Origin: Methanocellales archaeon | GTDB lineage: Archaea > Halobacteriota > UBA148 > JAUWXC01 | Reading direction: 5' to 3' | DNA length: 64,000 nt | NCBI GenBank assembly: GCA_030018435.1 | Contig: JASEEY010000001.1 | Span: forward strand, 11,038-75,037 | Shown here: positions 1-55,298 of the stretch, piece by piece | How the letters are laid out: every line of letters starts with the position of its first letter | How positions within the stretch are numbered: position 1 is the stretch's first letter | The notes under the pieces: model-generated | The model's input: the letters and a program-made list of their open reading frames with translations, nothing else | Told to the model about the DNA's origin: nothing | The model's database searches: none | Program-made: the position numbers and the translations under genes

Positions 1-458
1 TTCAGCTTGACCGGCGTTAAATCGTTGGCAATTGCCGCCTCTACCCCATTAATCGCTTGCTGTAGGCAGTCTCTGCCTGTGATTATTTCGTATTTCTCAG
101 CATCTAATACATCAAGGCTGATGTTGACCCTGCGCAGACCAGCATCTTTCAGACCACTCGCGCAATGGTCTAGCAATGCTCCATTGGTGGTCATCGATAT
201 CTCCTTCATATAATTGGATGCGCGCCGAATGACCTCGCAGATATCATCCCGCAAAAGCGGCTCTCCGCCGGTCAGTTTAAGCTTTTCAATTCCAACTTTG
301 CCCCCAATCTCCACGATTTTCTCAATCTCGGCCGGACTCATCTCTCCCTTGGAGGAGTTTTGTCCTTCGTTGTGACAGTAGAAGCAGCGCAGATTACATC
401 GCTGTGTAACTGAGATACGCAGGCTGTTGACCTCTCTGCTGAATCTATCCTGCATGTG
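1..458 (-). CDS. moaA: GTP 3',8-cyclase MoaA (molybdenum cofactor biosynthesis, radical SAM); 3' part runs off window start
   Basis: Own translation of minus strand from ATG at 456-458: MQDRFSREVNSLRISVTQRCNLRCFYCHNEG...GGEPLLR...TTNG. CNLRCFYC is the MoaA-type radical SAM motif. The frame stays open to position 1. Confidence 0.8.
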
Positions 459-568
459 GATATGCTAAACTCAGCATAACGGTTAAACTTTTCTATTTTG
501 ATCGACCATTCTCGAAAAAGAGAAAAGATAATATAAGCGAATGACAATCACTTTGTCAAGGTGGTAGG

Positions 569-805
569 ATGGTCAAGGGCATAAAGATGGAGAAGGGCGA
601 CAAATTCTATGTGATTGCATTGTTGCTGGCGGCGCTGGGCGTACTCTGTGTCTTGGGATTTTTGGTGCATGAATCGCTTACTACTGTGATGGTGGCGGGC
701 GCAGGCTTTGGTTTGATCTCCCTAGGAGTGCTTTCACTGTTGTGGGGCATATACTCAGAGTATAAAGAAACGGGATCCATCAAAGAGGCATTGGGCTTAG
801 AGTAG
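569..805 (+). CDS. small hypothetical membrane protein (2 TM)
   Basis: 78-aa ORF with two hydrophobic helices. AAGGTGGTAGG lies immediately upstream of the ATG. Confidence 0.4.
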   Translation: MVKGIKMEKGDKFYVIALLLAALGVLCVLGFLVHESLTTVMVAGAGFGLISLGVLSLLWGIYSEYKETGSIKEALGLE

Positions 806-947
806 GTCGGCGGATACGCTCACTCATGCTAATAATCGATAACATATTTTGATTAATATCGCTAGGTTAATATTTGGACTAAATCTTAAACCTTACATAC
901 CTTCACCTTATACTTCTTTTATTTGAGCAGACCTATTGGTAATTGCC

Positions 948-963
948 ATTGATGGTTATCAAT
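948..963. promoter_or_regulatory. perfect inverted repeat ATTGAT-N4-ATCAAT 20 nt upstream of the hydrogenase small-subunit start; candidate operator
   Basis: Seen directly as attgatggttatcaat. An A/T-rich TATA-like stretch (ttttattt) lies about 30 nt further upstream. Confidence 0.35.
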
Positions 964-983
964 TTAAACTTGGGAGGGATTAA

Positions 984-1286
984 ATGGAAGATTTAAGACA
1001 TCTCGACATCCTAAAATTGGACAGGCGTACATTTCTCAAAGTTGCAGCGAGCATGGGTGCTTCTGTTTTTCTGGGAACTTATAAAGCGGACATCGTAAAA
1101 GCACTTGAATCGAGTGGTACAAATGTTGTGTGGTTGGAGGGTGCAGATTGTTGTGGTTGCTCAGAATCGTTCCTCAACGCTGCATATCCAGATGTCATAC
1201 AGGCAATCACAAAACTAAGCGTACACGTTGGTTATCATGAAACCCTGATGATGCAGCAAGGCATTTTCGTGGACGAAACCTGGTGA
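984..1286 (+). CDS. vhtG: [NiFe] hydrogenase small subunit, N-terminal fragment (Tat signal plus first Cys cluster); reading frame ends at TGA 1284-1286
   Basis: RRTFLKVAASMGASVF twin-arginine signal. VVWLEGADCCGCSES and HVGYHETLMM match small-subunit N-terminal motifs. Confidence 0.8.
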   Translation: MEDLRHLDILKLDRRTFLKVAASMGASVFLGTYKADIVKALESSGTNVVWLEGADCCGCSESFLNAAYPDVIQAITKLSVHVGYHETLMMQQGIFVDETW

Positions 1287-2104
1287 ATACTTCTGAGTTA
1301 AACGCAGAGTTGGCTCTTGAGGAATATATGACCGGAGAAAAGCCACTGGGTGTATTGGTCATAGAGGGTGCCATTGCGGATGGACCAGAGGGCTCGGGCA
1401 AGTACACCACAGTAGGAGGAAAGCCGTTCAAGGAAATGGTCCAGCGATGTGCTGCCAAAGCCTCATACGTTGTCGCTTTTGGCATGTGCGCGACATACGG
1501 CGGCATTCCGGCGGCGAGAGGCTCTGTAACGGACAATATGGGAGCACAATTCTTACAAACGACGAAAGGCGGAATTCTCGGTGCTGGCTATACATCTGGA
1601 GCAGGTCTGCCAGTAGTAAACATTCCTGGTTGCCCAGCACATCCAGACTGGATAATGTTAACGTTGGCAGCGATCATTCTTGGCAAGGGCGGGCTCATCG
1701 AATTGGATGAGTACAACAGACCAACTGCGTTCTTCCCACCAGATTACACCATACATGAGAACTGTCCAAGGCGTGGTTTCTATGATATAGGTCAATTGGA
1801 CACTGAATTTACTGAAGGGCACTGTCTATGGAAACTGGGATGCAAGGCACCATATACGCACGCAGACTGTGCGACGCGTTTGTGGAATAATCATCTGAAC
1901 ATGTGCACCCAAGCAGGGTCACCATGTATCGGTTGCGTGCAACCAGGATTCCCAGATAGTACAAGTCCGTTCTATGTGGAAATGGAGAAAGTACCGACGC
2001 TGGTAGGCGTGGACATAAATACCATAGCCAAAGCGGCTATAGGCGCAGCCGCAATTGGCGTGGGAGCGCATGCAGCGCGCAGAATAGGCATGAAGGAGGA
2101 ATGA
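1283..2104 (+). CDS. vhtG: [NiFe] hydrogenase small subunit, C-terminal part in the -1 frame relative to 984-1286 (apparent frameshift)
   Basis: GVLVIEGAI...VAFGMCATYGGIPAA...NIPGCPAHPDW...ENCPRRG...CLWKLGCKAPYTHADC...GSPCIGC are distal and medial FeS-cluster motifs of the small subunit. Frame 2 is open from 1241 and overlaps frame 0 by 45 nt. Confidence 0.8.
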   Translation: MNTSELNAELALEEYMTGEKPLGVLVIEGAIADGPEGSGKYTTVGGKPFKEMVQRCAAKASYVVAFGMCATYGGIPAARGSVTDNMGAQFLQTTKGGILGAGYTSGAGLPVVNIPGCPAHPDWIMLTLAAIILGKGGLIELDEYNRPTAFFPPDYTIHENCPRRGFYDIGQLDTEFTEGHCLWKLGCKAPYTHADCATRLWNNHLNMCTQAGSPCIGCVQPGFPDSTSPFYVEMEKVPTLVGVDINTIAKAAIGAAAIGVGAHAARRIGMKEE

Positions 2105-2108
2105 GCAA

Positions 2109-3917
2109 ATGGCAACAGTAGTAGTTGATCCACTGACAAGGATTGAGGGACACCTGAGACTCACAGCTGAAGTCAGCGATGGCGTAATTACGAATGCGCA
2201 CAGCTCTGGGACTATGTACAGGGGATTTGAACAGATTCTCAAGGGCAGGGATCCAAGGGATGCATCCAGGATAACACAAAGGATCTGCGGAGTATGTCCT
2301 ACCGGTCATGCAATGACATCGGTCAATGCATTGGATGATGCGTTCGGTCTAGCGGAATACATACCAAAGGATGCGCTGGTTGTGAGAAACATCGTGCAGT
2401 GTCTGAATACCATAGCCAGTCATGCGACGCATATATACGTGCTCTGGTTGCTGGACCTAGCGAACCCAGCATACAAGACGATCCTGGAGACGATAAACCT
2501 GAAGCCAGTCTGGGACGAACTCGTGGGCAGATTTGCACCGATCAGTCACTCCATAGAAGGTAAGGCAGTTCCACCAGGAAGTTCTTACTTGGCAGCCATC
2601 CCAGAGAAGAAGGCGCTACAAGAGGCGATAGCGGTGTTTGGAGGCAAGATGCCCATTCAGATGACCTCCATTGTAGGAGGAGTCACTTGCACTCCCACCG
2701 TCGCAGACATAGGCAGGATCGCATCCTACTACGTAAGGGTCATGGAGTTTGTCAACCATTACGTGCTAGGACTGGATGCGCTTGGCATAACAAGCGACCC
2801 GTTGGAAACCGCCGATAAATGGCTCGAACTCACACACGACGTCAGCAAGGACAAGGCAGTGGCAAACGTGTTGGACATATTGGGTGGTTTGCCAACCGAT
2901 GACTTCTCTCGAGCAGCGGGATGGAGCGATGTTGCATTGCTCGCAGCATTCGGCTCAGAACTCATAGGAGAAACGTTGCTGGGACTGCCAGCCAGCCTGA
3001 AGTTTGACACGATAGGTGGATATCCAGTGGACCCAACGAAGATCGGTTTCCTTTCATATGGCGTGTTCTATGCCATCAAAGAAGGATACGATCCAACCAG
3101 CCCGAAGGGTGAACGCTTCATCACATCCGGCTTCACAAGCGGCGATCTCAAGTATGAGGAGTTCAATCATCACAATGTGACAGAGCATGTGGCGCACTCA
3201 TTCTACACGAGCGGCAACGATTTGCATCCATGGGGCGGAGAAACCGAACCGGTTAAAACAACAGCGACGATCAAATACGATGATCCAGCCGCAAAATACA
3301 GCTGGCTCAAAGCACCGAGGTACAAGCAAATACCATGCGAAGTAGGACCACTAGCGAGAATGATCAATGCTAAAGAGCCTTTGGTCACGGGACTGGCAGA
3401 GACGTTCTTAGCCAACTGCTACTCGCCTGCAAACGTCTACACGAGGATGCTGGCAAGGGCACAAGAGACCATCATTCTTGCACGCGAATTAAAGAAATGG
3501 GTACTAGTCGACTTGGATTCAAATGGCAAATTCTACACGCATGCAGATCTATCGATGGCCAAGAACAGCCAGGGCGTAGGTCTCTGGGAAGCTCCAAGAG
3601 GCGCATTAGGACACTGGATCGTGACCGATGGAGCATCAAAGATAGCAAACTACCAGCCAGTTGTTCCTTCGACATGGAACCTTTGTCCCAGAGATACCAA
3701 CGGCAAACTGGGCCCGGTCGAGCTAGCGCTTGTGGGCAGTAAGGTCGGTCCGGTTGGCAACGTGCTTAGCACATTGGGCGCGATACCGCTATCCAAGGAA
3801 AACGAGAATCCAACAGGCATATTCCACGTAGGTAGATCGTTCGACCCATGCATCGCTTGTGCGGTGCACACGATCGACATGAACACCAACAAGAAATACG
3901 AGCTCAGAATACTCTAG
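2109..3917 (+). CDS. vhtA: [NiFe] hydrogenase large subunit with cleavable C-terminal extension
   Basis: 602 aa. N-terminal RICGVCPTGH and C-terminal DPCIACAVH Ni-Fe binding motifs. A 15-aa tail follows the His, which is the usual site for the maturation protease. Confidence 0.9.
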   Translation: MATVVVDPLTRIEGHLRLTAEVSDGVITNAHSSGTMYRGFEQILKGRDPRDASRITQRICGVCPTGHAMTSVNALDDAFGLAEYIPKDALVVRNIVQCLNTIASHATHIYVLWLLDLANPAYKTILETINLKPVWDELVGRFAPISHSIEGKAVPPGSSYLAAIPEKKALQEAIAVFGGKMPIQMTSIVGGVTCTPTVADIGRIASYYVRVMEFVNHYVLGLDALGITSDPLETADKWLELTHDVSKDKAVANVLDILGGLPTDDFSRAAGWSDVALLAAFGSELIGETLLGLPASLKFDTIGGYPVDPTKIGFLSYGVFYAIKEGYDPTSPKGERFITSGFTSGDLKYEEFNHHNVTEHVAHSFYTSGNDLHPWGGETEPVKTTATIKYDDPAAKYSWLKAPRYKQIPCEVGPLARMINAKEPLVTGLAETFLANCYSPANVYTRMLARAQETIILARELKKWVLVDLDSNGKFYTHADLSMAKNSQGVGLWEAPRGALGHWIVTDGASKIANYQPVVPSTWNLCPRDTNGKLGPVELALVGSKVGPVGNVLSTLGAIPLSKENENPTGIFHVGRSFDPCIACAVHTIDMNTNKKYELRIL

Positions 3918-3925
3918 GTGGTATC

Positions 3926-4645
3926 ATGGCAGAGCAAGTAGTAGAAAGATGGAACAAACCAATGATGGCCATGCACTGGATTCACATGGTCACATGCCTG
4001 ATACTGATCATCACCGGCTTCCGCATCTACCTAGGATGGGGGCTCCCCTCTGCCTATTCACAGGCAAGGGCATTGCACATGGTTGCAGTGGTAGGATTTC
4101 TAATAGCAAACCTCATACTCCTTCCATACGGCATGGTCCTGGAGGCCCTGGAGGGTATCAAACACTACGGTATTAAGCAGGGCATCAAACACTTCATGAA
4201 AGCGAACCTGTTCGGTATGGAAGATGCGCGCAGGCTCAAAGCCATTTTACTCAACTTCTTTGGAAAGCAAAAGGGGTATCCAGCGCTCACGATATACGAT
4301 GAAAAGGCAGGGCTTTATGCGAACAGGAGCCATCCAGTGACGAAAATCCTCATACCACTGGAGGGGATTTTCATCCTGCTCATAACCCTGTCTGGAATCG
4401 TCTTGTATAACATCAACTGGACAATTGTGGGACTCAACATAGGTGCTTTCCTGAGAAGCATTGCGACGGTGACGTTCTGGAGAACGTTGCATCTCGGCTC
4501 GATGTACTACTTCATCTTAGACCTGTTCATACACGTTGGCATATTACAGGCAGATACAAAGCTCAAGCATGCATGGAAAGCGATGTTTCTTACGGGCAAA
4601 GAAGACATAAAAACATCAGGGTACGCCAAAATTGTAAAGAAATAA
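3926..4645 (+). CDS. vhtC: hydrogenase cytochrome b membrane anchor subunit (Vht/Vho C-like)
   Basis: Polytopic membrane protein directly downstream of the large subunit. ATG at 3926 is preceded by GGTGGT, which favours it over the longer track start at 3848 that overlaps vhtA. His residues sit in the transmembrane helices. Confidence 0.7.
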   Translation: MAEQVVERWNKPMMAMHWIHMVTCLILIITGFRIYLGWGLPSAYSQARALHMVAVVGFLIANLILLPYGMVLEALEGIKHYGIKQGIKHFMKANLFGMEDARRLKAILLNFFGKQKGYPALTIYDEKAGLYANRSHPVTKILIPLEGIFILLITLSGIVLYNINWTIVGLNIGAFLRSIATVTFWRTLHLGSMYYFILDLFIHVGILQADTKLKHAWKAMFLTGKEDIKTSGYAKIVKK

Positions 4646-4680
4646 AGGGGAAAATTCTCCCCTTTCTTTTTATTTTTAAT
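4646..4680. terminator. bidirectional terminator between convergent vhtC and echF: GGGGA-AAATTC-TCCCC hairpin followed by a T-rich run
   Basis: Seen directly: aggggaaaattctcccctttctttttatttttaat. A T-rich tract after a hairpin is the typical archaeal termination signal. Confidence 0.6.
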
Positions 4681-4991
4681 TAATTCGTACTCCCTGCCTC
4701 TTGTTTCCTAATCAAGACCCCAAATCTACAAGCACCGATGCACAGATTGCACCGTATGCACCTGCCCACGTTTATCACTGGTATCAGCTTCTCATCTATA
4801 TGTGAGAGCGTAATCGCTCCTGGTACTGGGCAGACCGTCACGCACGCCTTACATTCTGTACATTCTCCTACCACAACCGGAAAATCCCTAAATCTCGGTG
4901 GGGTTGGCACTGGTTTCGTTTTTGCGAACAGGAATTTCTTAATCCATTCCGATCGTGCGAATTCGTGTAGATACCATATGAGTGAAGACAT
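4680..4991 (-). CDS. echF: 2x[4Fe-4S] ferredoxin subunit of Ech-type hydrogenase (EchF-like)
   Basis: CTECKACVTVCP and CIRCNLCIGACRFG are two CxxCxxCxxxCP ferredoxin motifs. It is the last gene of the ech-like operon. Confidence 0.75.
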   Translation of the reverse strand: MSSLIWYLHEFARSEWIKKFLFAKTKPVPTPPRFRDFPVVVGECTECKACVTVCPVPGAITLSHIDEKLIPVINVGRCIRCNLCIGACRFGVLIRKQEAGSTN

Positions 4992-4994
4992 GAA

Positions 4995-6089
4995 TCATCC
5001 CTCTGTGCACGCTATACATGGGTCGATGCTGGCGTAAATCGCCACGGCATCGGCTATTGACGGAGACCCTGCAAGCATATACCTAGCACAAGTTTCTAGG
5101 TTTAGTCTGGTGGGAGTTCTAATCGTGATGTCATCGATTTTTCCAGCACTGTCTGTCTTTACGAAGTATTTGAGCTCGCCTCTGGGTGCCTCACCACTGT
5201 GGAAACCCTCACCAGCCTTCACCCTGCCCTTATTTTGGATATTTCCTTTTGGCAGGTTATCTATGGCATCTCTGATGAGGTTCATGGACTGGAAGATCTC
5301 GTCAAATCTTACCAGGACTCTTGCTGTATTGTCTCCCTCTTTTCTTGAGATTGCCTTGAAGTCGAAGATATCTCTATATGTGGGATGTCTGAGTCTCCAG
5401 TCGGATTCTGGGTGACCCGAGCCCCTGGCAACAGGACCCACTGCGGGAACTTTTACCGCATCCTCATAGGAAAGAACGCCGATGCCCCTTGACCTGAGCT
5501 GCAGCAGCGGCCCATGTTCGAACATCCCCATATATCTCCTTATTCTCGGCTCCATCCTGTCAAGCATCTCCAATATCGTTTTCAAATGATGATCTTCAAT
5601 GTCCCATCTCACGCCGCCAAGGACGTTCCAGGACATGTGTACTCTGTTGCCGCTTACCATCTCCAATAAATCCATCGAATTCTCCCTAACGTCAAGCGTG
5701 TACATCGCAAGCGTTTCGTGCTCGATCCCGAGGAAATAAGACACGTTTGCTATGAGGTGGCTCTGTATCCTATCCAGCTCGTTAACGATGACGCGCAGAT
5801 ATTTTGCCCTGGGCGTCGGCTCGACATCGGAAATCTTCTCAAGGGTCTCTATGAACGTCATGCAATGGATATTGGAACATATGCCGCAGACTCTTTCTGC
5901 GAGATAGACGGCTTTGTTCCAGGGTTTGCCTTTTAGGATTCTCTCTATCCCCCTATGCATATATCCCAGTTCCACCTCAGCATCGACCACTCTCTCGCCC
6001 ACTGTGTGCAATTTAATCCTCAACGGCTCTTTTAGCGCTGGATGTAGAGGACCGATTGGTATGGATACGTCAACATTTTTTTCAATCAC
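4995..6089 (-). CDS. echE: group 4 [NiFe] hydrogenase large subunit (EchE/HycE/NuoD-like)
   Basis: 364 aa. N-terminal RVCGICSNIH and C-terminal DPCIACTEG Ni-binding Cys pairs. There is no C-terminal extension. Confidence 0.85.
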   Translation of the reverse strand: MIEKNVDVSIPIGPLHPALKEPLRIKLHTVGERVVDAEVELGYMHRGIERILKGKPWNKAVYLAERVCGICSNIHCMTFIETLEKISDVEPTPRAKYLRVIVNELDRIQSHLIANVSYFLGIEHETLAMYTLDVRENSMDLLEMVSGNRVHMSWNVLGGVRWDIEDHHLKTILEMLDRMEPRIRRYMGMFEHGPLLQLRSRGIGVLSYEDAVKVPAVGPVARGSGHPESDWRLRHPTYRDIFDFKAISRKEGDNTARVLVRFDEIFQSMNLIRDAIDNLPKGNIQNKGRVKAGEGFHSGEAPRGELKYFVKTDSAGKIDDITIRTPTRLNLETCARYMLAGSPSIADAVAIYASIDPCIACTEG

Positions 6090-6547
6090 TTGTTTGCCTC
6101 CTTTTTGTCATAGTCCTTGAATACGATAGGTGCCACTCCCAGAATTGCATCCAGGATTTCACTCGGCCTGGGCGGACATCCCGGTACCTCGGCAGCCACG
6201 GGTATGAAGTTTTTAATGGGAGGATAAACCCGCTTACCCTCCTGGTCGAATATACCTCCCGAGCACGCGCACGATCCAACGGCGACGACCACTTTCGGCT
6301 CTGGAATTTTATCATAAAGCTCCTTCAGCTTCGTCTTCCACTGCTCGGTAACGCAACCGGTTATTATCAGGATATCTGCTTCTCTTGGATTCGGGTGGTG
6401 TACGAAGATGCCATATTGCTCTATATCATATCTCGGACAAATGGTTGCAAGAACCTCGATGCTACAGCCATTACAACTACCAGCATCGGCGTAAGTCACG
6501 TGGAACGATTTGCGGCGTACGAAATTTTTGAGCTTATCGAAGATCAT
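6086..6547 (-). CDS. echC: group 4 hydrogenase small subunit (EchC/NuoB-like, proximal 4Fe-4S)
   Basis: 153 aa. CNGCSIE...ITGCVT...GSCACSGG Cys pattern of NuoB/HycG-like subunits. 4-nt overlaps with neighbours on both sides. Confidence 0.85.
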   Translation of the reverse strand: MIFDKLKNFVRRKSFHVTYADAGSCNGCSIEVLATICPRYDIEQYGIFVHHPNPREADILIITGCVTEQWKTKLKELYDKIPEPKVVVAVGSCACSGGIFDQEGKRVYPPIKNFIPVAAEVPGCPPRPSEILDAILGVAPIVFKDYDKKEANK

Positions 6548-6945
6548 TTTAGTATCCCCCTTATTCTCTCTCGAACTACATCCTTGGCAGCTTCTAGTGC
6601 TTTTTCATAGGGCTTGCCAGACCACACCACACTTTCCACCAGGTCCTTCGTTATCTCCGCCACATCCTCTTCTGAGATTAGATTTAGAGCATCGCATAGT
6701 AGGGTCAATCGTAAATCGAGGTCCACTTTTTTCTCTAGGCAGGCGCTCCAGTTCTGCTCTGCCCTGGAGTGAATGCCCATCAATCCTGCCATGTCGAGTT
6801 TTTCCATTATGCAATTTTCAAGCTTCTCCTTTGGAATTTTGTACAGCTTCGCGAGAGGCTCGATGACATCCTTTTGATATCTGTAACTTTTCAGCTTCCA
6901 TCTCTTCATCTCCGTAAGGTCGTAACTCTTCGCTATGGACTTCAT
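6544..6945 (-). CDS. small hydrophilic subunit of Ech-type hydrogenase (EchD-like position); function unknown
   Basis: ATG at 6943-6945 forms an ATGA stop-start overlap with the upstream 88-aa gene. The longer track ORF running to 7002 overlaps that gene. No recognisable motif. Confidence 0.45.
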   Translation of the reverse strand: MKSIAKSYDLTEMKRWKLKSYRYQKDVIEPLAKLYKIPKEKLENCIMEKLDMAGLMGIHSRAEQNWSACLEKKVDLDLRLTLLCDALNLISEEDVAEITKDLVESVVWSGKPYEKALEAAKDVVRERIRGILK

Positions 6946-7208
6946 GTCGCCACCCCCCATACGAAGTACGAGGCTAATACAAATCCACCCAGCACCAGCC
7001 ACATGAACAAGACCTCCAGTTTCTCAGAGAACTTTGCTCCGCTCTCTGAAAGGGGCGCCGTTAACAGGAGCAAAACTCCCGCTAGCACTATGCACGCGAT
7101 CATTGCCGGAGCGCGATATATGCTTCCATAGGATCTCACTACTTCTGCCACTGCTACCAGGAACGGTATCGCTGCAACCAAGATGCTCATGGAGACGAAC
7201 CTTCTCAT
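6942..7208 (-). CDS. 88-aa 3-TM membrane subunit, possibly NuoK/MnhC-like, in the ech-like operon
   Basis: Three hydrophobic helices. Translationally coupled to both neighbours with 4-nt overlaps. Confidence 0.45.
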   Translation of the reverse strand: MRRFVSMSILVAAIPFLVAVAEVVRSYGSIYRAPAMIACIVLAGVLLLLTAPLSESGAKFSEKLEVLFMWLVLGGFVLASYFVWGVAT

Positions 7209-8062
7209 AGGATCACTCCCTTTAGTAGATAGTACAACACCGCCACGCTGGCAATTGAGGCTTCGACCATTACTGAATGATACGGTGCCAGCATGGGGGT
7301 TAGTGCGCTAATGAAAGATAGTGAGGCAAGCAATAGGACGAATCCCAGCGCATAACCCCATAACGGAGCCGGACCAATGTATACCAACATGAACAGCGAC
7401 ATTAGCACGAATATCTCTATGCTTTCGCCGGTCAAAATGCCCGCTCTTAGAACTCCAAAGTGCTCCGTCTTGTATCCGGTGACTATGTCCTTCGCCATTA
7501 CTATGGCCAATGGGGAGTGGTGGATCTTGGATAGCATTATGGTATAGGTTGCAAGTGCGCACAGCGGAAGCTGGAACAGGAGCGGTCCATGGGTGCTCTG
7601 ATATGCTACTATGTCCGAGATCATCAACGAGTTCGTTTTAAGATAGACGATGGCCAAAACGGCAAATAATGGGAGCTCAGCAGTTGCAGAGTACACCGAT
7701 CTTACGCCGCCAAACTTTCCATAGGGGGAGCCGGATGATAGTCCAGCTCCATGCTCGACTAGCTTGTGTAGCATCAGCACCGCCAGTAATATCAGGAAGT
7801 TATATCCATTGGTGACAACGACCAATCCGAGTATCCAGGCTCCTATGAGAAGTGCGACCACTCCGAAATATACCGGCTTGCAGGCCGTTTCTGGAGCGGT
7901 CATCTCCTTTACGAAGAACTTCAATAGATGATAGAGTTCCTGCTGTATTGGCGGGCCAGGTCGACCCTGTATTCTTGCGATGATCTTCCTATGCAGTCCT
8001 AGGAACATTATGCCGACCAGGAATGCAACTGGTATCATGAGCAAGGTTCTAATCAAGAGCAT
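7205..8062 (-). CDS. echB: NuoH/HycD/EchB-like integral membrane subunit of Ech-type hydrogenase
   Basis: 285 aa, polytopic. The LHRKIIARIQGRPGP motif is typical of NuoH/HycD. It is the first gene of the operon. Confidence 0.75.
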   Translation of the reverse strand: MLLIRTLLMIPVAFLVGIMFLGLHRKIIARIQGRPGPPIQQELYHLLKFFVKEMTAPETACKPVYFGVVALLIGAWILGLVVVTNGYNFLILLAVLMLHKLVEHGAGLSSGSPYGKFGGVRSVYSATAELPLFAVLAIVYLKTNSLMISDIVAYQSTHGPLLFQLPLCALATYTIMLSKIHHSPLAIVMAKDIVTGYKTEHFGVLRAGILTGESIEIFVLMSLFMLVYIGPAPLWGYALGFVLLLASLSFISALTPMLAPYHSVMVEASIASVAVLYYLLKGVIL

Positions 8063-12171: not shown

Positions 12172-12807
12172 ATGGATTCAGCGCAGCTATTAGACATCCT
12201 TGGCAACGAGAATAGAAGGAGAATACTCCAATTGCTTTCGCGTAGACCGTACTATATATCTGAGATTTCAGATCGATTAGACGTCGGTCCCAAAGCCATC
12301 ATCGAGCATCTGGATTTGCTCTCAAGTGTTGGTCTCGTTGAATTTCACACCGATAATCAGCGGCGCAAGTACTGCCACATTGCCCATAACGTCAGATTAG
12401 ATGTATTCGTTTCCCCACATTCATACGAGGTTGAGAGTGAGCCGGTAGAGATCGACACGAAAGAGCGGAAGCGATTGCGCCAAGAGTATGGCTCCATCAA
12501 TGCATTGTCAAACTTTAGCGATGAATTACAACGACTGATGTCCTTGCGCCAAGAATTGATGCTTGCACAGCGATCTACCCAAGCGATGATTTCAGAGTTA
12601 ATGGATGTGTGCGCTGAAACCATCGAACGCATCTCATCAGATTATTTAGAGGGCGAAATACTATTGTCCTTGATGAGGGGGGGGCAAACAACAGAAGCGC
12701 TTTCTGAGGAGCTGAACATTCCTCTATACGAAGCCAAAAAAGGATTATATCAACTGAAAGAAAAAGGAATTATCAAAAAAGATCGGGAGAAGTGGCACGT
12801 TAGATAG
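12172..12807 (+). CDS. winged-HTH (ArsR-like) transcription regulator, HSR1-like heat-shock regulator
   Basis: NENRRRILQLLSRRPYYISEISDRLDVGPKAIIEHLDLLSSVGLVEF is an ArsR-type HTH. It is the first gene of the regulator-cdc48-hsp20 operon. ATG at 12172; the track uses GTG at 12163. Confidence 0.7.
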   Translation: MDSAQLLDILGNENRRRILQLLSRRPYYISEISDRLDVGPKAIIEHLDLLSSVGLVEFHTDNQRRKYCHIAHNVRLDVFVSPHSYEVESEPVEIDTKERKRLRQEYGSINALSNFSDELQRLMSLRQELMLAQRSTQAMISELMDVCAETIERISSDYLEGEILLSLMRGGQTTEALSEELNIPLYEAKKGLYQLKEKGIIKKDREKWHVR

Positions 12808-12811
12808 GTGA

Positions 12812-15004
<2,193 letters not shown>

Positions 15005-15022
15005 AATGAGAGGAGGAATAAA

Positions 15023-15529
15023 ATGAAGAAGAAAAGAAGAAGCCCGTTTGACATATTCGGTGAGGACTGGCCTGATATATTTGGCGATGATTTTTACGAG
15101 AGATGGAAGAATTTGATAGAGAGAATGATGTCAGGAGAATTGGAAGGACCTGGTATCTATGGGTTCTCTGTGACAAGCCGACCAGGAGAGGAGCCGGAGA
15201 TTAGGGAGTTCGGAAATATACGCCCCTATGCTGGTGACATTGAGATAGGCGAACGCCGCCCCATCGTTGACGTGTTCGAATCAGATGAGGAGGTACAAGT
15301 GGTAGCGGAAATGCCAGGCGTCGAGAAAGATGACATCAAATTAGATGCAACCGAGACTTCGTTGGATATCAGCGCCAAAACGAGAGACAGGGAGTATTCT
15401 GAGCGCGTAGCCCTTCCGGCAAGAGTGGATCCCAACTCGGCAAAAGCCAGCTACAAGAACGGTGTGCTTGAAGTAATTCTCATGCGGGTTGAACCAAAAG
15501 AGAAGAGGCCCCCCATCAAAGTGGAGTGA
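15023..15529 (+). CDS. hsp20: small heat shock protein Hsp20 (alpha-crystallin domain)
   Basis: [19 protein letters not shown]...NGVLEVIL is the alpha-crystallin core. 18 nt downstream of cdc48 with a GAGGAGGA RBS. Confidence 0.85.
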
Positions 15530-15561
15530 GAGCTCACTTTTTCTTTTTTGCTGACATTAAA

Positions 15562-15790
15562 TAGCGGGGAGTGGATTTGAACCACTGATCTACGGGTATC
15601 CCACGATTTTCGAAAGGGGCGATCGTTTAGTACACTGCTTCAGGTGCACTTTCTTTTTTTGTATTTATAATCATAGTACTGTTGAATGAAGCGAATGTAG
15701 CACATTTTGACTAAATTGTTTTTGATCAACCTTTTTCTTAAAAAGGTTGGTTATGAGCCCGTCGGGATCTCCTGACTACCCCACCCCGCT
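15562..15790 (-). tRNA. tRNA-Met(CAU), initiator-like (A1:U72, three G:C pairs in the anticodon stem), with intron of about 154 nt (15598-15751) at 37/38
   Basis: Hand-folded from the reverse complement. 5' exon: AGCGGGGUGGGGUAGUCAGGAGAUCCCGACGGGCUCAUA. 3' exon: ACCCGUAGAUCAGUGGUUCAAAUCCACUCCCCGCU-A. Anticodon stem ACGGG/CCCGU, loop CUCAUAA, GGUUCAAAUCC T-loop. Confidence 0.7.
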
Positions 15791-15811
15791 ATGGTGTTAT
15801 ATAAGCCACAT

Positions 15812-16120
15812 CTATGTCTTGATGCTCTCTCGTTTGCTCAGCGTTGCCTGAATCTCGTCCAGCAACTCGTCCTCGGTCTTACCCTCGGTGGCAATGCCAA
15901 GCTCCTCTGCCATCTTTATTACCTTGCCTTTCTTCGCTCCCTTTGGTGCAGCTTCTAGGGATCGTTCAAACTCGCTCAATTCTTTCTCAGCTTCTCTCTG
16001 CGCCTTCTTGAACTCACCCATGGATTTGCCTACCGAGCGAGCCAGCTCTGGCAACTTCGACGCTCCAAAGAGGAGGATGATGATTACGCCTATGATCATT
16101 ATCTCATTTGGACCGATCAT
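15812..16120 (-). CDS. tatA: Tat translocase TatA/E-family protein
   Basis: N-terminal TM helix MIGPNEIMIIGVIIILLFGASKLPE followed by an amphipathic helix and an acidic tail. Confidence 0.85.
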   Translation of the reverse strand: MIGPNEIMIIGVIIILLFGASKLPELARSVGKSMGEFKKAQREAEKELSEFERSLEAAPKGAKKGKVIKMAEELGIATEGKTEDELLDEIQATLSKRESIKT

Positions 16121-16157
16121 TGATTTTCCACCTCATTCCAATATCTTGTCAACAATA

Positions 16158-16466
16158 TTAAACGTTCTGTTCCTCGGCTCGCTTCCTCAACTCTTTTTGA
16201 ATCTCATCCAGCAGTTCATCGTCAGTCTTGCCCTCGGTTTTGATTTTCAACTCCTCGGCCACCCTCTTTATCCTATCAACTTCCCCTTTTTCGGCCGCCC
16301 TCTTGGAGTACTGGAACTCGCTTAACTCGTACTCCGCTTCTTTCTGCGCCTTCTTGAACTCACCCATCGCCTTACCCATCGCCCTTGCCATCTCTGGTAG
16401 TTTATCTGTACCGAACAGCAGCAGTATTATTACAAATATCAGCAGTGTCTCCGTTGGTCCTATCAT
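16158..16466 (-). CDS. tatA: Tat translocase TatA/E-family protein (tandem paralog)
   Basis: MIGPTETLLIFVIILLLFGTDKLPEMARAMGKAMGEFKKAQKE has the same architecture as 15812-16120. Confidence 0.85.
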   Translation of the reverse strand: MIGPTETLLIFVIILLLFGTDKLPEMARAMGKAMGEFKKAQKEAEYELSEFQYSKRAAEKGEVDRIKRVAEELKIKTEGKTDDELLDEIQKELRKRAEEQNV

Positions 16467-16585
16467 CGAAACTACTCTTTCTGTTCAACTTTGACTTAAG
16501 GATTTTGGATATAAAAGGGCAAAGCGATGGAATGTATTACCGCATCGCTAAAACACGTAGGATAGATGCGCCTAAATCAAAGCGC

Positions 16586-16726
16586 CTATACGCCAATTCT
16601 AAATACCTTGGTGCCGCATCTGGGGCAAGTTCCCTTTGTCGCTCTCCTCTTGTTTTTCATGGTTACTTGCTGCGGATTCTGCATCGTCACTTTCTTCTTA
16701 CACTTCACACAATAGGCCTCTACCAT
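16586..16726 (-). CDS. 46-aa zinc-ribbon protein (CxxC...CPxCG), below the ORF-track cutoff
   Basis: Own translation: MVEAYCVKCKKKVTMQNPQQVTMKNKRRATKGTCPRCGTKVFRIG. AGGAGGT lies 5 nt upstream of the ATG and an A/T-rich box sits further upstream. Confidence 0.6.
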   Translation of the reverse strand: MVEAYCVKCKKKVTMQNPQQVTMKNKRRATKGTCPRCGTKVFRIGV

Positions 16727-16782
16727 TGTATACCTCCTTTTTTATTTTTAGAATGATGCCACCCATTAAAAACATTTCTCAA

Positions 16783-17103
16783 TCACTTAACTATCTCTGG
16801 AACGAATTTTGAGGCCCTGTACATTTGCACGCCCCTTCCGGCTACCCAAGAGGCACAATAACCCATAACGTATAAAAAGCCCACTTTGATCATCGCGCTA
16901 ATCACTCCGCCAAAAAGGTCTTGCGGGTCGGATTCAATAATGGACCCTGGAGACATGATCGAGGAGTATGCTATGTAGAACACCGTGCAGAGCAGGACGA
17001 TCCCAAATAAGAATACTGCAATGCCTAGAAACTTGCCGTGCACATCAATCTCAATTTTTTGCTTGACCGTCTTGGGTTTAGCCTTATCAACGCTCTCTTT
17101 CAT
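16783..17103 (-). CDS. hypothetical membrane protein (106 aa)
   Basis: The internal start MKESVDK avoids overlap with the upstream PurM-like gene. Two hydrophobic helices. Confidence 0.4.
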   Translation of the reverse strand: MKESVDKAKPKTVKQKIEIDVHGKFLGIAVFLFGIVLLCTVFYIAYSSIMSPGSIIESDPQDLFGGVISAMIKVGFLYVMGYCASWVAGRGVQMYRASKFVPEIVK

Positions 17104-17113
17104 ACTACCCCCG

Positions 17114-18442
17114 TCACTTATTCCGCTCAAGAATAAATTTGATTGCGTCCATCTTCTTTTGCACTGCACTCTCAGCCGCCCTGTCCACCTTGGCGCGCAT
17201 CTCTGAAACGTCGAGACTGGCTGACTCGCCCACGACCTTCTTGATGGGCGTATAGGCGGACTCCCTGAATTTTGGAGTAAGATCGATGCGCTTATCATCC
17301 CTGATAAGCTGGGCTCCTGCGCCTCTTTCGACGCGCCCCACTATGTCAGCTGCGATACCATGCTCTCGCAACAATTGCAGCGCGTGCATCACCACCTCAG
17401 GTGGAGCAATTACTAAAAGCGCATCCAGCGAGACGCCCAAATAATCGACGCTCAACTCGTCCAACATCCCCAGCACAGCGGGATTGACAAGCGAGCGGAG
17501 TTTCTCCTCCTCAAAAACGAGTTTTGCTCCGCTGACTTTTGAGATTTCGGCTGCATCTCCTCTAATCCCGCCGTTGGTAACATCGGTCATTGCGTGTATT
17601 TTTGGAGCAAATCCTGCATCCAACAGCACCAGGCATGCTCTCAAAAATCTCACATTTAGCGTTTCGCGCACGATGTGCGACCGACCAAAGTAGAGGGCTG
17701 TGGTGGAGATGGTACCTCCGCCAGCACCTTCAGTCATCAAAATTAGATCGCCGGGTCGCGCATCTTTGCGGGGCGTCAAATTATCGGCGATGCCAACCGC
17801 GCCGACACAACCAGTCATCCTGTCGCCGATTACCATGTCTCCTCCAATGCGAAGCGTACTTCCCGTGATCAGCGGTACGTTGACTAGTTCTGATACAGCA
17901 GCAGCACCAGCCGTATAATCGAATATCTTGGCAATATCGCCATCATCGGCTAGATGAACATCTGAGAAGAGCGCAACCGGGCGGGCACCCATGACGTAGA
18001 TATCGCGCAGCGCCGCCCTCGTAACATGAAACCCAGCCAAGAAGGGGAAATCGCTTAACCGCGAATGCATTCCGTCGACCGTTACAACTACATATTTTCC
18101 ATTCACGGAGACTACGCCAGAATCGTCCAGCTGACGAGAGTCGATAAATGCTCCAGTATCTCCGATGATCTCAGCGATCTTTTTGTGTGTGTAAAAATCA
18201 CCTTCGCCCCTGGAGCCAACACCAAATTCGCCCATCGTGATACCAGAGGGTGCGAACGAGATCAAATCATCTTCCAGATGAGACGTCGTCTCCACCTCCC
18301 CTAGGATGGCTTTGGCCAAGGCTTGAGCTTCGCTGGGGGATATATCCTTAATCTCAATGATGCGATCTGTCAGTTTTTTAAGAACGGTGTTATAACTTTC
18401 GCCCCTACGCAGAGCCCTTCTAGCATAGCCTTCAAGATCCAT
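17114..18442 (-). CDS. PurM/HypE-superfamily (AIR synthase-related) protein with N-terminal extension
   Basis: 442 aa. PurM-like N and C domains (DDSGVV, GDMVIGD-like regions). The specific family is not resolved. Confidence 0.6.
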   Translation of the reverse strand: MDLEGYARRALRRGESYNTVLKKLTDRIIEIKDISPSEAQALAKAILGEVETTSHLEDDLISFAPSGITMGEFGVGSRGEGDFYTHKKIAEIIGDTGAFIDSRQLDDSGVVSVNGKYVVVTVDGMHSRLSDFPFLAGFHVTRAALRDIYVMGARPVALFSDVHLADDGDIAKIFDYTAGAAAVSELVNVPLITGSTLRIGGDMVIGDRMTGCVGAVGIADNLTPRKDARPGDLILMTEGAGGGTISTTALYFGRSHIVRETLNVRFLRACLVLLDAGFAPKIHAMTDVTNGGIRGDAAEISKVSGAKLVFEEEKLRSLVNPAVLGMLDELSVDYLGVSLDALLVIAPPEVVMHALQLLREHGIAADIVGRVERGAGAQLIRDDKRIDLTPKFRESAYTPIKKVVGESASLDVSEMRAKVDRAAESAVQKKMDAIKFILERNK

Positions 18443-41396: not shown

Positions 41397-41792
41397 TTAC
41401 GCAACCTTACGAGGGCAAAGAGGAGATTTGAATGAACGAAGTAGATTCCGTCGTCTATCGAAGGGGAGGTTTTGTGCGTCCGCCACCCTGAATTCAACCC
41501 TATTCTCCACGCCCTCTCTTTTCGCCCTTTCTTTTGCCCTATCGACCATCCTTTCAGAAATGTCCACACCAACCACTCTACAGCCGTACATTTTTGCAAC
41601 GTAGCAGGGAGTTTTTCCAACGCCGCAACCGACGTCCAGGACGTATTTGCCTTTGTTTATATGGCATAACTCAATCAGCTCTCTTGTGGCCTTTAAGCCC
41701 CCCATATGTTTTGTTACACCCCAGTAAGCCTGCAATTCGAAGTAGGAAGATTCTACCTCTGAAATCTCTTCTGATAATTGTTTTGTCCCCAT
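41397..41792 (-). pseudogene. class I SAM-dependent methyltransferase, truncated and frameshifted after motif LPFD (pseudogene or remnant)
   Basis: LDVGCGVGKT (motif I), VGVDISERMVDRA and ADAQNLPFD are present. The expected motif continues in another frame as (D)DGIYFVHSNLLFAL and then runs antisense into argF. Confidence 0.5.
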
Positions 41793-41841: not shown

Positions 41842-41971
41842 AGCCTCGGGAGGGATTTGAACCCTCGACCTAGTGATATCTTGCAACCGTCCTACCGAAG
41901 GTGGACAAACGATCAACCCTTTTGAGAGTTGCTACAAGTCACTCGCTCTAGCCAGACTGAGCCACCGAGGC
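41842..41971 (-). tRNA. tRNA-Thr(UGU) with 55-nt intron (41878-41932) at 37/38
   Basis: Reverse complement, 5' exon: GCCUCGGUGGCUCAGUCUGGCUAGAGCGAGUGACUUGUA. 3' exon: AUCACUAGGUCGAGGGUUCAAAUCCCUCCCGAGGC-U. Anticodon stem AGUGA/UCACU. Confidence 0.75.
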
Positions 41972-46995: not shown

Positions 46996-46998
46996 CGT

Positions 46999-48835: not shown

Positions 48836-48836
48836 A

Positions 48837-49661: not shown

Positions 49662-50184
49662 AAACCAGTATCCCGTTCACCATTTCCAGAGCATCTGAGA
49701 GCTCTCCGCATCTCTCACAAATGCCTTGTTCGAGTCCTTTTACGGGCCTGAATGAAATATGCTCGCGATTCATCTCGATTAAATTTGAAAGAATGTCAGC
49801 AAGTCCAGAGGAAACTGCAATCATGTCGGTATCGGTGACGATGCCAACCAGTTTGCCATTCTCGATAACGGGCAATCTTCTGATGTCCAATTCTGCCATT
49901 TTTCGCGCAGCCTTGTCTACGCTGTCATCTGGCGATACGGTAACAAGTGGCCGCGTCATCAGATCCTTGAGCGTGGCAGAACTGGGCTTTAGGTCTTTCG
50001 AGACAATTGTTCGCACCATATCTCGCTCTGTCACGATGCCCACGGGTTTGCCCTTGTCAGTTATGATAAGAGTTCCTACATTGTGTGCGATCATCTTTTT
50101 TCCTGCATCCGAGGCTTTCATATCGCTTTCGGCTGTGATGACACCTTTTGTCATGATCTCTCGCACTGGCATTCTGGTTTCCAT
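49630..50184 (-). CDS. CBS-pair protein with C-terminal zinc ribbon
   Basis: Two CBS repeats followed by CERCGELSDALEMVNGILVCESC. Confidence 0.8.
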   Translation of the reverse strand: METRMPVREIMTKGVITAESDMKASDAGKKMIAHNVGTLIITDKGKPVGIVTERDMVRTIVSKDLKPSSATLKDLMTRPLVTVSPDDSVDKAARKMAELDIRRLPVIENGKLVGIVTDTDMIAVSSGLADILSNLIEMNREHISFRPVKGLEQGICERCGELSDALEMVNGILVCESCKDEVSR

Positions 50185-51375: not shown

Positions 51376-51376
51376 A

Positions 51377-53274: not shown

Positions 53275-53739
53275 TTGATGATGAGAATACACGTGCTCGG
53301 CTGTGGGAATTTGCTCGTTGGTGATGATGGCTTTGGTGTACACGTTCTAAAGGAACTGGAGAAAAGGGATTTGCCAAGCAACATCGAGTTGATTGAGGCT
53401 GGCACAGGAGGATTGGACATCCTAAACCTGATCGAGAGTACTGACAAGGCCATCATTATCGATGCCGTAAAAAGCGGTGGGAAAATTGGAAATGTGTATC
53501 GCTTTACCGAAAAAGACCTGCCTCCTTCAAATATGTCACTGCTGTCCCTTCATGACCTTGGTCTGGCCGATGTCCTGAAAACTGGTAGAATCATCCAGCC
53601 AAAGAGGATGCCAAAGGAGATTATCATCATCGGCTGCGAGGTTCAACAGGCAGACGAAATCAGGTTGGAACTGAGTCCCGATGTAGCCAAGGCGGTACCA
53701 GTTGTCGTGGATATGGTCTTAAAAGAGGTTGGTAATTAG
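53275..53739 (+). CDS. hydrogenase maturation endopeptidase (HycI/HyaD family)
   Basis: MMMRIHVLGCGNLLVGDDGFGVHV...IIIDAV matches the protease family. Confidence 0.85.
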   Translation: MMMRIHVLGCGNLLVGDDGFGVHVLKELEKRDLPSNIELIEAGTGGLDILNLIESTDKAIIIDAVKSGGKIGNVYRFTEKDLPPSNMSLLSLHDLGLADVLKTGRIIQPKRMPKEIIIIGCEVQQADEIRLELSPDVAKAVPVVVDMVLKEVGN

Positions 53740-54746
53740 CACACCCTCGGCACAGGATCGCCCATGGGAGTTTCCACAAACCTGGTACCACCTATTTCCG
53801 TTCTCATTATCACCCGCTTCCCCTTTTGGACTTCGCCGATGATTGCAGCATCTTTGCCATAGCGCGTTTTTCTGATCGCGGCCAGCACATCCTCCGCAGA
53901 CGTCTCCTCCACGCCGATGATGGCTTTGCCCTCATTGGCCATCTCAAGTGGGTCAATGCCAAGCATCTCGGATGCCGCCCTGACAGCGGGATTTATGGGA
54001 ATTGTCCCCTCCTCTATGACGATTCGCACCCCGCTCTTTTTCGCCATCTCGTTGAGGGCATTCGCTACGCCCCCGCGCGTAGGATCTTTCATGGCCGTTA
54101 TCCCCCCAACCTGCAACCCTGCTTGAATAGTGGACCAGATCGGTGATACGTCCGATATTAGATCGGTTTCAAAGTTGAATCCTTCCCTGTGCGCCAGTAT
54201 GGCAAAACCATGATCACCGATTGTGCCGGTTGTAATGATTTTGTTGCCGGGGCGCAATCCAGAATCCATAATTGGCTTTTCTGCAATCCCAATCCCGGTA
54301 GTGTTGATCATGATCCCATCGAACGCACCTTTTTCAACGACTTTCGTATCACCCGTCACAATCGCTCCACCCACCTCGCACATCGTCTCGTCCATGGAGT
54401 TCACGATTTTTCTTAGGTCCTCTATGAAAAATCCATCCACCATCACCATCGCGCTCGAAAGTGCGAGGGGTTTAGCACCCATCACCGCCAAGTCGTTAAT
54501 CGTGCCAGAAACTGCCAGACGCCCTATGTCGCCACCAGGAAAGAAGATTGGCTTGACCACATGGCTATCGGTCGTCAGCACGAGCGAGGTGTTATCTAAG
54601 GAGATGATCGCACCATCATCCAGTGCTTCTAATCCCATGCCGCCTGGCGTTTTTGTGTTTTTAAAACGCGCAAGAACGTTCACAATGAGTTCATGCATTA
54701 GCTCGCCACCTGCGCCATGAATGAGCGTTACCTCTTTCACTATCAC
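53736..54746 (-). CDS. hypE: hydrogenase maturation factor HypE
   Basis: 336 aa PurM-like. N-terminal TLIHGAGGELMHELI. C-terminus ends PRVC. Confidence 0.85.
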   Translation of the reverse strand: MIVKEVTLIHGAGGELMHELIVNVLARFKNTKTPGGMGLEALDDGAIISLDNTSLVLTTDSHVVKPIFFPGGDIGRLAVSGTINDLAVMGAKPLALSSAMVMVDGFFIEDLRKIVNSMDETMCEVGGAIVTGDTKVVEKGAFDGIMINTTGIGIAEKPIMDSGLRPGNKIITTGTIGDHGFAILAHREGFNFETDLISDVSPIWSTIQAGLQVGGITAMKDPTRGGVANALNEMAKKSGVRIVIEEGTIPINPAVRAASEMLGIDPLEMANEGKAIIGVEETSAEDVLAAIRKTRYGKDAAIIGEVQKGKRVIMRTEIGGTRFVETPMGDPVPRVC

Positions 54747-55075
54747 ACCTCAATTTCGACGTTTCTCACGTAGATCTCTCTTCCATGCAGGATCTTTGGG
54801 GGCGTCCCACACTTAGGGCATGTGAACCCTGCCGCGTTCCCTAGATGGCCGCAAGAGCAACTGACTTTGACTGGGATGGAATCAATCTCTAGCTTGGTGC
54901 CATCCAACTCGGTTTCGCTTGTAATGGCCTCGAATGAGAATTTGAGTTGCTCGGGATTGACAAACGTTAGCTCCCCTACTTCGACGTTAACCTTTAACAC
55001 CTTCTTTGCATTGTTTTGTCTTGCAACCTCGCGCACGGTATTAACTATGTCGTAAGCGATGCCGTATTCGTGCAT
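54743..55075 (-). CDS. hypA: hydrogenase nickel insertion protein HypA
   Basis: MHEYGIAYDIV N-terminus and zinc site CSCGH...CPKCG. Confidence 0.85.
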   Translation of the reverse strand: MHEYGIAYDIVNTVREVARQNNAKKVLKVNVEVGELTFVNPEQLKFSFEAITSETELDGTKLEIDSIPVKVSCSCGHLGNAAGFTCPKCGTPPKILHGREIYVRNVEIEV

Positions 55076-55076
55076 T

Positions 55077-55298
55077 TCACTCCTCTGTGCTTTCGGCCAG
55101 CTCATTGAACAACCTTATCGTCTCCTTGGCTTCCTCTTCATCAATCGTTTGAATCGCGTATCCTACATGCACCAATACATAATCGTTTTCCTTGGCATCC
55201 ACCAGGTCGAGTAGGATCTCCTGCTCCAACCCGCCAAAATCGGCGATTGCCTTGTGCCCATCTATCTTGATTATTTTTGCTGGAATCGCAAGACACAT
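55077..55298 (-). CDS. hypC: hydrogenase maturation factor HypC
   Basis: MCLAIPAKI N-terminus. 73 aa. Confidence 0.9.
   Translation of the reverse strand: MCLAIPAKIIKIDGHKAIADFGGLEQEILLDLVDAKENDYVLVHVGYAIQTIDEEEAKETIRLFNELAESTEE

Follow-up and report, generated by a model that had tools for sequence, protein, structure and literature searches.

The gene for the small subunit of a Vht/Vho-type [NiFe] hydrogenase (vhtG) in a Methanocellales metagenome-assembled genome (MAG) is interrupted by the loss of one base, which is probably a real, very recent single-base deletion that has inactivated the gene. By DNA alignment with six intact orthologues, the lost base was identified as one G of a GG doublet at position 1275 of the window (the whole 64-kb stretch of DNA that was analysed). 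The case is most likely one instance of recurrent Vht hydrogenase erosion in uncultured Methanocellales. In the preliminary description of this DNA, an indel artefact, a very recent inactivation and, as less likely, recoding had been listed; recent inactivation is favoured here, given that two assemblies agree on the sequence, that this is the sole frameshift in the window, and that related MAGs carry independent vht lesions, nonsense codons among them.

The vht operon and its interrupted small-subunit gene

The operon is vhtGAC-like and is predicted to encode a Tat-exported, cytochrome b-linked group 1 [NiFe] uptake hydrogenase (Table 1). The single uninterrupted frame of ~370 codons expected for a Vht/Vho small subunit was absent from the window, and two overlapping open reading frames were found, ORF1 and ORF2, which, judged from their sequences, are one Vht/Vho-type small subunit. 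ORF1 contained the Tat signal, the CxxC proximal-cluster ligands (GADCCGCSES) and the first strands of the flavodoxin-like domain, and its 3' end was a frameshifted tail (...VDETW and the stop). The twin-arginine motif DRRTFLK occupied residues 13-19 of ORF1, and the Pfam TAT_signal profile scored 20.2 bits on it, under the cut-off of 22.7. ORF2, with the N-terminal sequence MNTSELNAELALEEY..., held the other cluster ligands together with the C-terminal membrane anchor; of the four cysteines of the proximal cluster, two lay in ORF1 and two in ORF2. Oxidored_q6 (PF01058) was divided between the frames in Pfam scans (profile positions 1-35 in ORF1 and 37-127 in ORF2), and NiFe_hyd_SSU_C (PF14720) followed whole in ORF2. 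The ORF coordinates and the domain split agree with the preliminary description, which had reported one small-subunit gene split by a 1-nt frame change, with a Tat-signal and first-cluster half ending at the TGA and a -1 frame that opens upstream of this stop.

Table 1. Features of the vht operon and related genes in the window (positions are those of the window).
Feature	Position	Strand	Remarks
SD-like GGGAGGG	972..978	+	strong ribosome-binding site, 5 nt 5' of the vhtG start codon; read from the sequence
ORF1, small-subunit N-terminal fragment, 100 aa	984..1286	+	TGA stop 1284-1286; MDI6888084.1
Lesion site	1274..1275	+	single G in the window vs GG in six orthologues; DNA alignment
ORF2, small-subunit C-terminal fragment, 273 aa, GTG start	1283..2104	+	frame open from 1241
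GTGA, overlap of the ORF1 stop (TGA 1284-1286) and the first possible ORF2 start (GTG 1283-1285)	1283..1286	+	
Second in-frame stop of ORF1, TAA	1299..1301	+	read from the sequence
Internal GAGG, 5 nt, then ATG 1328	1319..1330	+	candidate separate start of a 258-aa C-terminal fragment
Large subunit, 602 aa, NiFeSe_Hases	2109..3917	+	intact; MDI6888086.1
Cytochrome b subunit, 239 aa, Ni_hydr_CYTB	3926..4645	+	intact; MDI6888087.1
Group 4 Eha/Ech-like hydrogenase	4680..8062	-	intact
Two tatA in tandem, 102 aa each	15812..16466	-	
HycI-type maturation protease	53275..53739	+	domain full-length; Pfam
hypE-like gene (AIRS/AIRS_C, 336 aa) and hypA (120 aa)	53736..55105	-	intact

The large subunit and the cytochrome b subunit downstream had been described as intact, and both had complete Pfam domains; the hycI-like protease gene, also described earlier, was found to be complete. 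In the large subunit, the motifs RICGVCPTGH and DPCIACAVH were present, as well as the C-terminal extension for protease cleavage. The tatA pair represents parts of the export route that the small subunit needs, and it adjoins the vht operon in relatives. Since an intact group 4 Eha/Ech-like hydrogenase is encoded in the window, the organism keeps other hydrogenases.

By exact sequence match, the window belongs to a 156,235-bp contig of the NCBI MAG ('Methanocellales archaeon', locus tags QMC78_). In the annotation of this MAG, ORF1 is labelled 'twin-arginine translocation signal domain-containing protein', and the part of ORF2 from ATG 1328 (MDI6888085.1, 258 aa) is labelled 'hypothetical protein'. 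The bases of the GAGG and of ATG 1328 are constrained by the conserved protein stretch LEEYM, and relatives have them too. The proper annotation would be one disrupted vhtG and not two separate proteins.

Position of the missing base

Across the junction, the sequence of the relatives is GTGGA[CT] GG[ATG] AG[AG] TTG GT[CTA] GG[CA] (V-D-G-R-L-V-G), and the window reads GTGGAC-GAAACCTGGTGAAT (beginning GTGGAC-GAAAC). The affected codon is GGN, which encodes the near-invariant Gly of FVDG. When the G is restored at 1275, the repair gives GIFVDGNLVNTSELN (GIFVDGNLV), with FVDG preserved. A different repair had been proposed earlier, in which one T is inserted into the T4 run at 1264-1267. This insertion does restore the frame, but it does not mark the lesion: the repaired peptide would read GIFRGRNLV, with FVDG lost, and the alignment to the orthologues puts the gap at G 1275 and not in the T4 run.

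Orthologues

The close orthologues, six of six, were uninterrupted single ORFs of ~373 aa. They were found in the Methanocellales MAG CSMAG_2674 (L003; 88% nt identity in vhtG, 87.6% over 8.1 kb, collinear), in a Logan contig (L061; 86% nt identity to the window) and in four Methanocellales/Methanocellaceae MAGs (L004-L007; ~76% in vhtG, 77-79% across the operon). A search of 39 genome loci, 19 metagenome loci (distant relatives only, at most 37% identity) and the best 120 protein clusters turned up no orthologue that shares the break. Such an orthologue, with a downstream internal start, had been named beforehand as a sign of a genuine split gene, and the search was negative in the six close orthologues as well as in the best 120 clusters. 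None of these 120 homologue clusters held a split small subunit, and the sole short entry (P0008) was a partial protein at a contig end. No second vhtG copy from the window MAG, which might have served as a gene-conversion donor for the substitution cluster described below, was found in the protein collection searched.

Selection on vhtG and distribution of substitutions

The repaired protein kept 65 of the 65 family-invariant columns, including the Cys and His ligands, in an alignment of 30 family sequences. In comparison with L003, dN/dS was 0.124 for the small subunit (0.146 for the ORF1 part and 0.110 for the ORF2 part) and 0.137 for the large subunit. Amino-acid changes were polarised with three outgroups and counted in the window and L003 lineages: 11 and 11 changes, respectively, were specific to each lineage in the small subunit, 24 and 22 in the large subunit, and 13 and 33 in cytochrome b. 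Neither dN/dS nor the change counts gave a sign of relaxed selection on vhtG, and the gene contained no further lesions. An old pseudogene was ruled out by dN/dS and the relative-rate counts. The break is therefore very recent, tolerated, or not real, and the lesion must be recent if the gene is a pseudogene at all.

Lineage-specific substitutions were unevenly distributed along vhtG (11, 3, 17, 1, 0, 3, 3 and 2 per consecutive 140-nt bin), with 17 of the 40 in the one bin that starts at the deletion. The bunched changes were both synonymous and non-synonymous (V94I, R99N, G102N, S108A, D123G and M140K) and lay in a protein stretch that is invariant in the six relatives. When set against a locally higher rate, the bunching was marginal (about 0.08). 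The stem of L003 and L061 had a substitution bunch of its own (gene nt 701-980), without a frameshift.

Lesions in the vht genes of related MAGs

A homologue of 64% identity (P0006) belonged to a 90% cluster that holds proteins of three MAGs from the same submission batch as the window. The locus tags of these sister MAGs include QMC85_, and one of the MAGs matches the run SRR23186779, which is consecutive with SRR23186780. L062, L064 and L065 represent one species (97-98% nt identity), in which vhtGAC adjoins apbE-rnf genes. The operon was intact in L064 (GCA_030019435.1; G 369 aa, A 542 aa, C 249 aa). In L062 (GCA_030019155.1, QMC85_03585), vhtA was intact and vhtG carried two nonsense codons and a frameshift: CAG had become TAG at codon 82, a deletion at codon 171 had shortened a G5 run to G4, and codon 221, the invariant Trp of CPAHPDW, had changed from TGG to TAG. 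The private changes of this vhtG were four non-synonymous and no synonymous ones, and a Logan contig (L063) reproduced L062 with one mismatch in 3,351 nt. In L065 (GCA_030016775.1), vhtG was intact and vhtA had a 1-nt insertion at codon 109, leaving frames of 144 + 437 aa. An A7 to A6 change common to L062 and L065 removed the stop of cytochrome b. The flanking genes (an AIRS-family gene, apbE and rnfB) were intact in L062, L064 and L065.

Thus, of the four Methanocellales MAGs of the project that have a vht operon, three, the window's included, carried independent disabling lesions, which were confined to this operon. L062 and L065 are like the window in order, submission batch and operon type, in coming from consecutive runs, and in having lesions in vht with intact neighbours; they differ in species (64% small-subunit identity) and in the places of the lesions. 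L062, with three disabling hits, has decayed further than the window, which has one hit only. Nonsense substitutions cannot be produced as indel-type assembly errors, and the vht genes therefore truly decay in these populations. The several independent hits suggest that Vht is dispensable or counter-selected in them.

Probable inactivation of vhtG

With one G of the GG doublet at 1275 lost, translation from the normal start would stop nine bases further on and would give a 100-residue product with nothing but the Tat signal and two of the four cysteines of the proximal cluster. The remaining 273 codons would have neither a signal peptide nor a strong ribosome-binding site. Because the ORF1 product would be so limited and ORF2 would be left without these elements, the hydrogenase is most likely inactive, as far as can be predicted from the gene; loss of function is what we infer here. 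The mutation would be very recent, because the rest of the gene and operon is undecayed, and the deletion is presumably at high frequency in the reads.

Some observations count against a recent null mutation. A lone lesion without other decay also fits an artefact or a tolerated split, the bunching of substitutions at and after the break is not predicted by a brand-new null mutation, and the break lies in a clade-specific loop with a stop/start overlap (GTGA).

A possible small subunit in two pieces

A real deletion with the small subunit still made, now as two polypeptides, was considered an unlikely alternative to the recent inactivation. ORF2 would start either by termination-reinitiation at GTG 1283 or at the GAGG-led ATG 1328, and in the cytoplasm both pieces would join the large subunit, to leave together by the Tat 'hitchhiker' route. 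In its stronger form, in which the deletion is fixed and tolerated and the Vht small subunit works as two non-covalently assembled polypeptides exported with the large subunit, we regard the idea as quite improbable. The pieces would then be a ~60-residue fragment (after signal cleavage) with the Tat signal and two proximal-cluster cysteines, and a 273-residue fragment with the rest, produced via termination-reinitiation at GTGA. The substitution burst at 1263-1403 would represent remodelling of the new termini and the initiation region.

The GTGA overlap was made by two window-specific substitutions (GTC/T/A to GTG and GGC to AAT), which fits this reading, although a TGA stop at a -1 offset always creates an overlapping NTG, which by expectation is a start in three of four cases. 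GTG 1283 has no SD-like sequence, in contrast to vhtG (GGGAGGG) and vhtA (GGAGGA). The break falls in a 12-residue Vht/Vho-type insertion loop that is absent from the Huc small subunit 7utd_B, the closest solved structure, and this clade-specific loop is the most permissive place for a split. An AlphaFold2 model of the intact orthologue P0001, made for loop exposure, was unusable (mean pLDDT 54), and therefore no conclusion on exposure was drawn from it. A split here nevertheless divides the four proximal-cluster ligands two and two. The retention of all invariant residues, the low dN/dS in both halves and the intact tat, hyp and hycI genes also speak for this reading, as does the bunching of lineage-specific changes (synonymous as well as non-synonymous) near the new termini or the initiation region. 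However, this bunching is marginal at the local rate and has a counterpart without a frameshift in the L003 and L061 stem, neither the orthologues nor the best 120 homologue clusters include a split gene, and a sister MAG shows that real vhtG decay does occur in these populations.

VhuA/VhuU, in the F420-non-reducing hydrogenase of Methanococcus voltae, is a naturally split [NiFe] large subunit, in which the small piece carries the C-terminal Ni ligands. It offers a precedent for a [NiFe] hydrogenase subunit that exists as two assembling polypeptides, but that split affects the large subunit and is conserved across species, whereas the split in the window affects the small subunit and was found in one genome only. 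VhuU appears under its own name as a separate subunit in PMC2933860. If true, a two-piece subunit in the window would be the first known [NiFe] small subunit to be split in nature, and also a natural example of a Tat signal that is supplied in trans to the rest of the subunit it belongs to.

A possible sequencing or assembly error

It is also rather improbable that the deletion is a sequencing or assembly artefact and that vhtG is intact in the organism, with GG at 1275. Occasional indels do occur in MAG consensus sequences, and vhtG is perfect apart from the deletion. The Logan assembly of SRR23186780, a k-mer-based second assembler's product, nevertheless gave the identical sequence: an 18.2-kb contig matched the window over 7,216 nt, break included, and its sole mismatch to the NCBI MAG lay 26 nt away from the end of the contig. 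One run probably underlies both the MAG and the Logan contig, which makes their agreement one between assemblers and not between samples; since both assemblies probably share one read set, the artefact was kept at a low probability and not at zero. The lesion is in a 2-base run and not in a long homopolymer or another typical error site. About 60 other ORFs of the window had end-to-end Pfam domain matches, no second frameshift was found among them, and none of the 13 homopolymers of at least 7 nt in the window broke a gene. An error-prone assembly was rejected on the basis of these Pfam scans, in which one oddity was seen, a truncated methyltransferase (41397..41792). The nonsense substitutions in the same operon of related MAGs also argue for true lesions, as indel errors cannot make them.

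Programmed recoding as an unlikely alternative

Full-length subunit synthesis by -1 ribosomal frameshifting, transcriptional slippage or stop-codon redefinition is extremely unlikely and had already been ranked last in the preliminary description, a ranking that the analysis bears out: recoding is unsupported, as neither a slippery heptamer nor a useful readthrough nor an orthologue sharing the break was found. The only points in its favour are that a -1 shift anywhere in 1241-1283 would fuse the frames and that U_UUC at 1264-1268 would permit an A-site tRNA-Phe slip. A slip at the T run would, however, give GIFRGRNLV and destroy the conserved FVDG, and no X_XXY_YYZ heptamer occurs in the ORF1 frame at 1241-1286, where the codons across the overlap are GGC ATT TTC GTG GAC GAA ACC TGG TGA. 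Polymerase slippage would need longer runs than A3 and T4, the RNA fold of 1255-1375 is unremarkable (z = -1.85; 12 of 200 shuffles fold as well), and the two-frame arrangement is not conserved, the orthologues all being in frame. Selenocysteine decoding or readthrough of TGA 1284 was rejected as pointless because the TAA at 1299-1301 follows 12 nt on in the same frame. Programmed -1 frameshifting is known in archaea from Sulfolobus fucA1 (A_AAA_AAT). As in fucA1, two overlapping ORFs at a -1 offset encode one protein family member in the window; in contrast to fucA1, the window has no slippery heptamer and no site conservation, and the fold has the z value given above.

Relation to known hydrogenases and implications

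The window subunit has 54% identity to VhtG/VhoG of Methanosarcina (P0030, P0034), which belong to methanophenazine-reducing, cytochrome b-linked group 1 hydrogenases. Both have the Tat signal, Oxidored_q6 and NiFe_hyd_SSU_C domains, the C-terminal anchor and the insertion loop ...QQGIFVDGxLVNTSELN..., as well as the gene order G-A-C with a Ni_hydr_CYTB cytochrome b. They differ in that the window gene is interrupted by a 1-nt deletion and its host is a Methanocellales MAG, and in the proximal-cluster motif, which is DCCGC in the window genome and its closest relatives and ECTGC in Methanosarcina VhtG/VhoG. To our knowledge, cultured Methanocellales are described as being without cytochromes, and, going by these cultured members, Vht-type cytochrome b-linked hydrogenases are unexpected in the order. 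Met12, a non-methanogenic Methanocellales archaeon, has kept homologues of HyaAB (= VhtAG) and lacks HyaC/VhtC (PMC11176372). Met12 and the window are alike in having an incomplete Vht-like hydrogenase in a Methanocellales lineage; the defect lies in different parts, since Met12 has whole catalytic subunits and no cytochrome b gene, whereas the window has a whole cytochrome b and a broken small subunit.

The vhtG of the window is most likely an ordinary disrupted gene in a metagenome-assembled genome, and the main value of the case lies in the corrected annotation and in the pointer to a pattern of parallel loss. If confirmed by read-level data, this pattern would mean repeated, ongoing loss of Vht-dependent H2 uptake in these populations. 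Such repeated loss, if true, would bear on their energy conservation and on metabolic predictions that are made from gene presence alone.

Substitutions and cluster ligands in vhtG

Substitutions private to the window's lineage were unevenly distributed along the broken small-subunit gene. Of the 40 that could be polarised, 17 fell in one bunch that begins at the vhtG deletion, and seven singletons within this bunch lay inside 39 nt. Of the 28 singletons, 24 lay within the gene's first 420 nt (Fisher p = 3e-7 versus other taxa).

The proximal-cluster motif of the window's VhtG (GADCCGCSES) contains an extra cysteine. This C-C-G-C form was found in the window genome and its closest relatives, and C-T-G-C in other Vht/Vho enzymes. 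In O2-tolerant enzymes, the supernumerary cysteine occurs as C-T-C-C, and the extra cysteine in the window is at a different position.

Damaged vht genes in a sister species

A vhtG pseudogene with multiple lesions was found in a sister Methanocellales MAG of the same project as the window (locus L062, GCA_030019155.1 JASEFP010000032) and in the Logan contig L063 of run SRR23186779. The L062 gene is interrupted by TAG nonsense mutations at codons 82 and 221, and a deletion at codon 171 shortens a G5 run to G4. Its private changes were four non-synonymous and zero synonymous, including E54G at a residue adjoining a cluster cysteine. vhtA and the flanking genes of L062 were undamaged.

In the third MAG of the same species (L065, GCA_030016775.1 JASEIY010000046), vhtG was undamaged, and the large-subunit gene vhtA had gained one nucleotide, a C, at codon 109, which divides it into two products, 144 aa and 437 aa long. 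L062 and L065 also share a change in the cytochrome b gene, A7 to A6 at codon 247, with the gene of L064, another MAG of this species, as the reference. The change abolishes the stop codon, and the reading frame, now 316 aa long, extends into apbE, which is convergent with it.

Other genes in the window

The tRNA matched Rfam at 55 bits, was not detected by ARAGORN, and is presumably an archaeal tRNA with an intron. In the nearby methyltransferase, the domain stops after ~60% of its length (Methyltransf_25 positions 1-62 of 97). Its gene, probably the remnant of a longer one, abuts the 3' end of a carbamoyltransferase gene that is convergent with it. Given the OapB and OapC genes, a replication origin may be close by.

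Coordinates of the features described (window positions unless a locus is named)
Feature	Location	Strand	Description
Vht-type hydrogenase region	1-4645
Membrane ORF	569-805	+	78 aa, predicted
Proximal-cluster motif	1146-1160
Substitution bunch	1263-1403
Group 4 [NiFe] hydrogenase cluster	4680-8062	-	Ferredoxin; 364-aa large subunit; 153-aa small subunit; DUF1959/EhaM protein; NADHdh-type membrane subunit
CDC48 block counterpart	12805-18442
Methyltransferase	41397-41792	-	131 aa, class I
tRNA	41842-41971	-	130 nt
CBS-domain genes	46219-50184	-	Five in a row, products of CBS domains only (258, 298, 316, 274, 184 aa)
OapB and OapC	50959-51748	+	Origin-associated proteins
vhtG pseudogene	L062:206-1314
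Cytochrome b	L062:2956-3906
vhtA of third MAG	L065:1732-3361
Vht-type hydrogenase region	L064:6001-13110
Cytochrome b reference	L064:8752-9501

Surroundings and occurrence of the vht operon

The 78-aa ORF upstream of vhtG had no family match, and its position is conserved in the loci L001 and L061. The energy-converting group 4 hydrogenase cluster and the vht operon are convergent, and every gene in the cluster is intact. In relatives (L005-L007 and L064), vhtG is immediately preceded by the block CDC48-hsp20-tatA-tatA-AIRS-family gene. The operon is at another site in the window and its nearest relative, L003, beside molybdopterin-synthesis genes and the group 4 hydrogenase; this difference in location is a rearrangement. 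The L064 hydrogenase genes adjoin apbE and rnf genes. Cultured Methanocellales have been described as having no cytochromes; a Vht-type, cytochrome b-linked hydrogenase is carried by several Methanocellales MAG lineages.
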